A stretch of DNA of 6,187 bases, taken from positions 1 to 6,187 of IMG/VR virus record IMGVR_UViG_2671181111_000004; one strand, 5' to 3'. This document shows, in pieces, positions 4,136 to 4,453 of the stretch; the first letter of the stretch is position 1; each line of letters opens with the position of its first letter. A program made the position numbers and the translations under genes. The DNA comes from a virus (Duplodnaviria > Heunggongvirae > Uroviricota > Caudoviricetes). The notes under the pieces are model-generated. The model saw only the letters and a list, made by a program, of their open reading frames with translations, was not told the origin of the DNA and did no database searches.

Positions 4136-4453
4136 GGTGACAGCCCCTATGTTGAATTCAAAGAACTCACCACATGGGACGCCAATCACAGAGGTGGTGA
4201 GACGTACAGGGTTGGCGTAACCGGTCAACATAGAACCCGGCGCATCTTGCGATGCCCCTGCACGCCCCACCATAATTTGGGCGTAGCAATGCTCATGACA
4301 CGAAAAAACCGCATGAGCGCGGTTATGCTCTATATTGAATTTCAGGACGCCAATCCCGGCACCCGCTTTATAAGGTGCAGAGACAGTGTAACGTCCCGAA
4401 ATTGCAGAATCAATATATTGTGCAGATATAACGATTTTGTTATGTTTTGCTGT
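4136..4453. promoter_or_regulatory. divergent intergenic control region between the Rha operon (minus) and the toxin-antitoxin cassette (plus); contains repeated motifs and a palindrome
   Basis: 318 bp separating divergent starts. Exact 11-bp direct repeat GGACGCCAATC at 4177-4187 and 4345-4355, each preceded by TTGAATT (4152, 4335); perfect 10-bp palindrome CAATATATTG at 4411-4420. Candidate -35 TTGACC on the minus strand. No promoter elements were verified. Confidence 0.4.

Follow-up and report, generated by a model that had tools for sequence, protein, structure and literature searches.

Allele-specific target and antisense sequences are the basis of heteroimmunity in phages P1 and P7, whose immI region (c4 - icd - ant) was reportedly described by Citron and Schuster in 1990. 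Arrangements in which an IsrK RNA and a C4 RNA occur together are not confined to these two phages, and IsrK-C4 systems have already been described in P4, P1, P7, N15 and lambdoid prophages (Barquist et al. 2013, PMC3632133). In Gifsy-1, short IsrK activates translation of a read-through mRNA in trans, by way of an upstream ORF that is coupled to the antirepressor gene (PMC4825925). Residues G28 and G31 of Gifsy-1 IsrK, which lie in AUUGGCG, were shown to pair with C162 and C159, which lie in CGCCAA (Hershko-Shalev et al. 2016, PMC4825925). The changes G28A, G31A, C162U and C159U each raise AnrP translation, and double mutants restore the wild-type RNA conformation (PMC4825925). The same study detected an RNA of ~80 nt, STnc1160, which is processed from the read-through transcript, and drew the analogy to P4 seqA and CI. 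Its authors favour alternative folds of the long RNA together with activation by IsrK over repression of the C4 type, and co-expression of STnc1160 was unlike that of a simple repressor (PMC4825925).

Here, we analysed a stretch of 6,187 nt from a virus of the Caudoviricetes (the window). Read on the minus strand, the 318 bp at 4136-4453 are very probably an IsrK-C4 antisense-RNA immunity cassette that stands before a Rha antirepressor-like gene. With the same high confidence, we place the cassette with P1/P7 immI (a1 b1 - c4 - a2 b2 - icd/ant), P4 (seqA - CI - seqC) and Gifsy-1 (isrK - STnc1160/orf45 - anrP) as a system of one kind. Its minus-strand order, 5' to 3', is promoter-like hexamers, an IsrK-like RNA with a terminator, a C4 RNA, and the ribosome-binding site and AUG of Rha. 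A search of viral contigs for relatives of Rha returned 80 loci, and a homologous leader is present in 78/80, giving 47 distinct sequences for comparison. The elements on the minus strand are as follows, with a and b names according to P1 nomenclature.

4408..4413, minus strand: predicted -35 box TTGATT of the isrK/C4/Rha promoter, invariant in 47/47 distinct leaders
4385..4390, minus strand: predicted -10 box TACACT of the same promoter, TATATT in two divergent leaders
4302..4378, minus strand: IsrK-like small RNA, Rfam RF01394 (61.9 bits against a gathering threshold of 50, E 7e-12, full model)
4378-4359, minus strand: hairpin 1 of the IsrK-like RNA
4358-4343, minus strand: hairpin 2 of the IsrK-like RNA, with a1 in its loop
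4345..4355, minus strand: target a1, GAUUGGCGUCC, the upstream 11-mer copy, complementary to C4 ACGCCAAC (inverted repeat I4)
4330..4341, minus strand: target b1, AAUUCAAUAUAG, at the upstream TTGAATT copy, complementary to the C4 loop CUAUGUUGA with one G-U pair
4324-4307, then a U-run to 4302, minus strand: intrinsic terminator matched by a terminator scan, closing the isrK match
4190..4277, minus strand: C4-type antisense RNA, Rfam RF01695 (80.1 bits against a gathering threshold of 45, E 4e-15, model positions 1-87 of 87)
4271..4273, minus strand: AUG equivalent to the first Gifsy-1 orf45 start, in frame with Rha as a 46-codon extension, placed by alignment with Gifsy-1 and the numbering in PMC4825925
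4225..4233, minus strand: b', CUAUGUUGA, located within the 12-nt loop that caps the second C4 hairpin; perfect (100%) complement of 4147-4155 (inverted repeat I3)
4211..4218, minus strand: a', ACGCCAAC, in the single-stranded junction of the C4 fold
4177..4187, minus strand: target a2, GAUUGGCGUCC, the downstream 11-mer copy, starting 5 nt past the predicted C4 3' end
4147..4158, minus strand: target b2, AAUUCAACAUAG, whose 3' end overlaps the Rha Shine-Dalgarno AGGGG (4148-4144)
3572..4135, minus strand: Rha-family gene (187 aa), the regulated output, Pfam PF09669 (E 5.6e-27)

Both RNA assignments are accompanied by conserved structure. In its minimum free energy fold, C4 is closed by a 17-bp stem and forms two hairpins, one with a tetraloop and one with a 12-nt loop, besides an 8-nt single strand. 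Thirteen distinct variants retain this architecture, and between them the closing stem and hairpin 1 differ by compensatory paired changes. By analogy with the ends of mature P1 C4, taken from the P1 GenBank annotation (AF234172), mature C4 is predicted at ~4271-4193. In the IsrK-like RNA, a1 makes up the loop and 3' arm of hairpin 2, b1 is single-stranded between hairpin 2 and the terminator, and both hairpin 1 and the terminator vary among homologues in a compensatory manner. Across the leaders, then, the promoter hexamers, the closing stem of C4 and the terminator are kept, with compensatory changes, and the whole leader folds with z = -4.4. The Rfam c4-a1b1 motif (RF03163) reaches 22.6 bits at 4391-4339, below its gathering threshold of 46.7; the isrK model also covers this stretch, and the a1 and b1 features are present there. 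In the Rha product, we also find a weak, sub-threshold match to P22_AR_C (P22 antirepressor C-terminal; 17 bits vs 22.4).

The predicted minus-strand promoter is well placed for the IsrK-like RNA. TTGATT and TACACT are spaced by 17 nt, and the -10 box sits 6 nt before G4378, where the Rfam isrK model begins (position 1) and with which the 5' end of Gifsy-1 IsrK aligns. A consensus scan overlooked this promoter because it fits the consensus at only 8/12 positions. Neither this promoter nor that proposed below for the opposite strand was picked up in the sigma-70 scan, in which the only site was an unrelated one on the plus strand, at 4247-4276 inside C4.

C4 carries two segments, a' and b', and each has one target upstream and one downstream of C4. 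The a' sequence is identical to the Gifsy-1 segment that holds C159 and C162, and window positions G4351 and G4348, within the a1 11-mer, are the counterparts of G28 and G31 in Gifsy-1 IsrK. Like a1, a2 is complementary to ACGCCAAC in C4, and it can occupy the loop of a hairpin formed by CUCACCAC and GUGGUGAG (4201-4194 / 4173-4166, inverted repeat I6). As RNA, b1 and b2 read AAUUCAAYAUAG and both copies are complementary to CUAUGUUGA; the Shine-Dalgarno that b2 overlaps lies 8 nt before the Rha AUG at 4135. In all four duplex-energy matrices the most stable entries are the cognate duplexes. The b1 duplex with C4 has -10.9 kcal/mol for the cognate pair vs -1.6 to -5.1 for non-cognate alleles, and the b2 duplex has -12.1 kcal/mol vs -0.9 to -6.5 for the others. 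In one row of the energy matrix for the upstream site, the a alleles are poorly discriminated, since they share the flanking G/C runs.

Pairing with C4 also explains why the DNA is repetitive: a single antisense segment has two targets to match, hence the exact 11-mer repeat. An earlier note on this stretch had drawn attention to GGACGCCAATC at 4177-4187 and 4345-4355 and to a TTGAATT near each copy, and both observations stand. TTGAATT, at 4152-4158 and 4335-4341, is part of a 12-mer with one mismatch (CTATGTTGAATT at 4147-4158 / CTATATTGAATT at 4330-4341). The rough chance expectation of about 0.01 given there for the 11-mer is borne out by 5000 dinucleotide-preserving shuffles of 4136-4453, 1.1% of which contain a direct repeat that is exact over 11 nt or more. 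The note had likewise singled out CAATATATTG at 4411-4420 as a perfect palindrome, and so it is; it is not significant in the same shuffles, 31% of which contain a perfect palindrome of at least 10 bp. The repeat, rare in shuffles, therefore needs an explanation, whereas the palindrome alone does not. Copies of TGCAGA do flank the palindrome, at 4403-4408 and 4421-4426, but the second is not conserved in homologues, and we accordingly set these flanks aside as chance.

Transcription in the opposite direction would serve a separate module, and the palindrome lies where the two meet.

4411..4420, no strand: palindrome CAATATATTG, comprising the isrK -35 TTG (minus strand) and the toxin -35 TTG (plus strand), back to back around ATAT
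4418..4446, plus strand: predicted toxin-antitoxin promoter, with -35 TTGTGC at 4418-4423 and extended -10 TGTTATGTT at 4438-4446
4428-4443, plus strand: candidate antitoxin operator, inverted repeat ATAACGATTTTGTTAT (ATAAC-N6-GTTAT)
4454-4783, plus strand: Gp49/HigB-like toxin, Pfam PF05973 (E 3.8e-26)
4773-5081, plus strand: HTH antitoxin, Pfam PF01381 (E 3.7e-10)

The toxin-antitoxin pair (4454..5081) is a divergent neighbour and is outside the RNA switch. Homology of the Rha module always stops at 4416-4420, within the palindrome, which, as read from the sequence, is the back-to-back TTGs of two predicted divergent -35 boxes. Its centre varies in homologues (TATA / TACA / CACA / TGTG), and related loci that have the same junction show TACA, CACA or TGTG there, so the palindrome is not maintained. 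Upstream of many toxin homologues it is absent, with a variable centre, unlike a type II toxin-antitoxin operator. We rejected the palindrome as an operator on these grounds: the shuffle P value is 0.31, its centre varies and it spans a mosaic junction. The inverted repeat at 4428-4443 is likely to be the better candidate for the antitoxin operator. ATAAC-N6-GTTAT, the extended -10 and a TTG 17 nt upstream of TATGTT are found in 30/30 distinct upstream regions of toxin homologues (72-100% amino acid identity, with unrelated flanks further upstream). No Shine-Dalgarno precedes the toxin ATG, which sits 7 nt past the -10, and the toxin mRNA may thus be leaderless.

Along with the fold, the complementarity and the RNA family membership, we observe three-way covariation among the homologous leaders. 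Short a and b elements are swapped wholesale among the 47 distinct sequences. The alleles number four for a (AUUGGCG, GUGGAAA, GUGAGAA and UCGCAG) and five for b (UCAAYAUAG, GAYUACY, UCACCAAAG, GUCAACGG and GCAUACGG), seen in 10 combinations, and in every one a change in the C4 segment goes with changes in both its upstream and its downstream target. Standard pairs fill 409/423 cells over the 47 leaders for b'-b2, 413/423 for b'-b1 and 324/329 for a'-a1 (96.7-98.5%), and the a'-a1 pairs include 2-3 pair types per position. For a'-a2 the count is 274/329 (83%), a figure depressed by an alignment shift at a 3-nt indel. Maximum pairing in 2000 row permutations was 0.71-0.82. Co-change of the targets with C4 is predicted by an RNA-RNA specificity code, and a protein operator would not require it. 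Where cassettes occur in tandem (two or three per prophage), each has a different, orthogonal allele pair, and further alleles are found in tandem cassettes, P4, P1 and Gifsy-1.

These observations, read alongside the described systems, suggest how the switch might work. Minus-strand transcription would start at ~4378 from the promoter at 4413-4385, and most transcripts would end at the terminator (4324-4302), yielding a 77-nt IsrK-like RNA with a1 in a hairpin loop and then b1. Read-through RNA would carry the C4 domain (4277-4190), a2, b2 at the ribosome-binding site, and Rha. C4 is presumably freed by processing, as in P1, P4 and Gifsy-1. Co-transcription from one promoter and release by RNase P would be in keeping with the conserved promoter-like sequence and, by analogy, with the likewise conserved AUUAUGG context, in which the P1 mature 5' end falls. 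Freed C4 would pair a' with a2 and b' with b2 on the Rha mRNA; since b2 adjoins the Shine-Dalgarno, this pairing should block Rha translation, and probably transcript elongation. The a1 and b1 sequences in IsrK would serve as target mimics, which in cis would lock the read-through RNA in an inactive fold, and free IsrK would compete for C4 in trans and so turn Rha on. The a1-a' pairing, and derepression upon its loss, are carried over from experiments on homologues. For this prophage we infer that C4 is processed, that it represses by occluding the ribosome-binding site and that IsrK acts as a decoy, and likewise the balance between translational and termination control.

That balance could lie elsewhere. 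If the output were as in P4, C4 pairing would mainly cause premature termination, at the IsrK terminator (a1/b1) and downstream (a2/b2), Rha translational repression would be secondary, and the upstream copy would be a true target and not a decoy. The cassette fits P4 as well as it fits P1, with the C4 and isrK models scoring 74.9 and 60.8 bits on P4 CI RNA and the seqA leader, and a1/b1 lie directly upstream of an intrinsic terminator. An IsrK-like sequence is required in P4-like prophages (PMC3632133), and P4 CI RNA is reported, in the summary given in PMC4825925, to bring about termination by pairing with seqA and seqC. Two points favour translational repression instead: b2 adjoins the Rha Shine-Dalgarno exactly as P1 b2 does at the icd Shine-Dalgarno, which fits occlusion of the ribosome-binding site, and the effect of IsrK in Gifsy-1 was 139-fold on translation and only 8-fold on transcription (PMC4825925). 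We consider a mainly P4-style output possible, though doubtful. P4-type and P1-type outputs are not mutually exclusive, and control by termination is best taken, tentatively, as a serious variant of the switch that does not contradict it. Much further from the antisense reading is the proposal, made in the earlier note, that the region holds candidate operators, the 11-mers and the palindrome being DNA sites bound by the HTH antitoxin and/or Rha. Direct repeats and a palindrome between two divergent genes for DNA-binding proteins would suit such sites, as would a repeat that is statistically unusual, and the proposal was right to see a control region with regulatory sites before Rha. The sites, however, are within a leader predicted to be transcribed and not at promoters, and they act as minus-strand RNA targets. 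They are not operators for the antitoxin, being kept without an adjacent toxin-antitoxin module in 44/47 distinct leaders. Whenever an allele changes, C4 changes in a complementary way, which a protein site would not need; the repeats thus co-vary with C4 segments and not as DNA-binding motifs. The palindrome is neither significant nor conserved, and it is a different inverted repeat (4428-4443) that is conserved with the toxin-antitoxin genes. In the light of the covariation the operator reading is largely refuted, and we give it hardly any credence.

The leader could also be read as protein. As the earlier note had seen, the minus-strand frame is open for 259 codons here; it belongs to an ORF, 3572..4912 (446 aa), that reaches this far upstream of the Rha ATG. 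On a coding view, a longer Rha protein (286 aa) would have the leader as its N-terminal 'Ash' domain, with the repeats incidental. Several features favour coding. The frame in phase with Rha is without a stop in 47/47 distinct leaders and is kept through indels, all leaders being 279 or 282 nt long; stops number 2-9 and 0-6 in the two remaining frames. When translated, the leader matches Pfam PF10554 (Phage_ASH) at 44.4 bits vs a cut-off of 26, and PGAP calls the long CDS in close homologues, annotating 286-aa 'Rha family' or 'ash family' proteins. Each of the ~20 different upstream junctions provides an in-frame start, at most of them an ATG ~100 codons upstream, in many cases within an ATGA overlap and with a good Shine-Dalgarno; at other junctions the leader is fused to a larger upstream ORF. 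However, the proportion of variable sites by codon position is flat in the leader (0.55 / 0.68 / 0.64), as opposed to 0.34 / 0.26 / 0.84 downstream of the Rha ATG, and the true Rha start is fixed at 4135. Changes within allele groups (36 synonymous, 76 non-synonymous) are near random expectation. The window has no start codon with a Shine-Dalgarno upstream of the isrK promoter, because the divergent toxin gene occupies that stretch. PF10554 also matches the obsolete P4 'cI' ORF over CI RNA, with no match to the P4 epsilon protein, and Gifsy-1 reads the equivalent nucleotides in another frame (orf45). We therefore do not retain the leader as a conserved protein domain, as neither the codon-position nor the synonymous/non-synonymous test shows protein constraint, and regard the coding view as very unlikely. 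'Ash' is probably a by-product of RNA conservation. The statement that 'Ash' is the P4 epsilon antirepressor (PMC8628076) can also be set aside, since epsilon matches PF25738 and does not resemble the translated leader.

While the peptide sequence does not seem to matter, the act of translating the leader may do so in some transcripts. One possibility, which we put forward as a conjecture that is somewhat unlikely, is that the RNA cassette is deliberately kept translatable and works as a two-mode switch. Transcripts from its own promoter, having no start codon, would be untranslated and under C4 control, and those from an upstream early operon would be translated through and would escape C4. 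If so, translation through IsrK and C4 would melt their structures and suppress both the terminator and Rho. The motif AAUUAUGGUGGG at the AUG at 4273 is conserved in all leaders, and the mature 5' end of P1 C4 is the G of the equivalent AUG. In a translatable cassette this AUG would add an N-terminally extended Rha isoform in the window, and, by analogy with P1, 5' processing of C4 would cut within it, making RNA release and translation mutually exclusive. The 'Ash' family of Pfam and PGAP would then be the translation of an RNA gene and not a protein domain.

Together, our results place the cassette, with good support, among the ordinary members of an RNA-based phage immunity system that is already known, and there is little new in it. 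Their value is mainly corrective, in that a well-studied RNA mechanism accounts for a repeat that looked like an operator, and close homologues are seen to be publicly annotated with a 286-aa CDS that absorbs two RNA genes. Approximately half of the complete E. coli genomes searched match part of the Rha-to-antitoxin query (window 3500-5200), which suggests that 'Ash'/'Rha family' mis-annotation is widespread. The leaders also show the modularity of the system in E. coli prophages, where short a and b sequences are freely reassorted. Orthogonal tandem cassettes would be expected were every antirepressor-like gene to require a private antisense lock, and they and the translatable leader are the only parts that might repay more work.

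Finally, the described systems share the organization of the window to different degrees. The C4 and isrK Rfam models match P4 (CI RNA and the seqA leader) and Gifsy-1 (between antQ and anrP), and the C4 model matches the annotated c4 of P1. The Gifsy-1 locus of Salmonella, like the cassette here, sits in a lambdoid prophage, and in both the promoter is followed by IsrK with its terminator, a C4-like RNA and an antirepressor-like gene. Its a allele is identical to that of the window (AUUGGCG / CGCCAA), and both have a conserved AUG at the 5' end of C4, whereas it carries another b allele (UCACCG / CGGUGA). The product of the regulated gene is an ORF6N protein in Gifsy-1 and Rha in the window, and the flanking gene is antQ in the former, compared with a divergent toxin-antitoxin pair in the latter. 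Gifsy-1 orf45 ends in an AUGA overlap with anrP, while in the window the same ORF is fused in frame to Rha. With no separate small ORF (icd/orf45) ending at the start of the regulated gene here, the coupling step of Gifsy-1 cannot be identical. P4 (seqA - CI RNA/seqB - seqC) resembles the window in that both Rfam models match at corresponding places and in that its old 'cI' ORF, open through the RNA gene, matches the same Pfam family as the leader of the window; its a allele (GUGAGAA / UUCUCAC) is shared with some of the E. coli leaders collected here. P4 differs in context, being a satellite phage, and in its reported output, which is transcription termination that protects replication genes, with no antirepressor directly downstream. 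P1 departs from the window in its specificity sequences, in having a second promoter, controlled by C1, and in carrying icd between b2 and ant, where the window is without icd. Its frame through C4 is closed, after 14 codons, unlike the open frame of the window; its upstream region is below the isrK threshold (35 bits, vs 61.9 bits in the window), and its C4 scores 68.8 bits with RF01695 vs 80.1. The element order of P1 is nonetheless that of the window, with a1 in a hairpin loop, then b1, C4 and a2, and last b2, at the Shine-Dalgarno of the gene that comes next, and the position of b2 relative to Shine-Dalgarno and AUG is the same at Rha in the window as at icd in P1.

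The minus-strand leader ahead of the Rha gene, which comprises an IsrK-like RNA and a C4-type antisense RNA, is open throughout in the Rha phase. This frame lacks a stop across the whole IsrK-C4 leader (4136-4416, minus) in 47/47 distinct homologues (loci L001-L082), leader indels preserve it, and approximately 20 different upstream junctions provide it with in-frame starts. Across the same region and loci, we found no codon-position signal of protein constraint in the leader frame. The region is handled as protein by PGAP and Pfam (PF10554, "Ash"), and the same Pfam model hits the old P4 cI ORF, which overlies CI RNA. 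Features considered here, in window positions unless a locus is named, are as follows:

4166-4201, minus: alternative pairing of the C4 closing stem 3′ strand, CUCACCAC, with downstream GUGGUGAG
4271-4273, minus: conserved AUG at the 5′ end of C4, in frame with Rha (46-codon extension in the window)
4418-4456, plus: predicted toxin promoter region, compared across loci L084-L132
L081 3191-4691 and L082 2270-3303: tandem isrK-C4 cassettes in E. coli prophages

The CUCACCAC/GUGGUGAG pairing can form a hairpin that would hold a2, a downstream target of C4, in its loop, resembling the display of the upstream target a1 in IsrK. The CACCACC...GGUGGUG pair is kept in every leader variant. In some E. 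coli prophages, two or three isrK-C4 cassettes stand in tandem, each preceding a Rha-like gene of its own, and in such arrays (L081, L082) the a/b allele pair differs from cassette to cassette, for example UUUGCAC/GUGCAAA with GUCAACGG/CCGUUGAC and UUGGAAC/GUUCCAA with GAUCRAGG/CCUUGAUC. The tandem cassettes appear to be orthogonal locks.

An isrK (and C4) cassette in divergent orientation usually lies directly upstream of close homologues of the Gp49/HTH toxin-antitoxin pair, and the back-to-back layout of the window is therefore recurrent. In L084, L088, L090, L102, L107, L118, L120 and L121, roughly 75 nt separate the isrK cassette from the toxin ATG downstream of it; these neighboring cassettes come from several distinct sequence subfamilies, and L114 and L134 have an sRNA-Xcc1 match in place of C4. 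Within the predicted toxin promoter region, a −35-like TTG and an extended −10 (TGTTATGTT) flank a conserved inverted repeat (ATAAC-N6-GTTAT), no Shine-Dalgarno sequence precedes the toxin ATG, and the ATG is 7 nt downstream of the −10. Together these features suggest that the promoter is autoregulated and that the toxin mRNA is leaderless. An ORF fragment (...EDWLREVIEKLNDWPSNQVHELLPWNF; 78-284, plus) at the window's left end adjoins the DnaB-like helicase gene and presumably resembles an IS66-family transposase C-terminus; if so, it would point to an insertion sequence next to the replication module of the prophage.

The conserved AUG of C4 has equivalents in characterized systems. In Gifsy-1 it corresponds to the first orf45 start codon, while the annotated mature C4 of P1 starts at the G of the equivalent AUG; processing that frees C4 would thus destroy this start codon.
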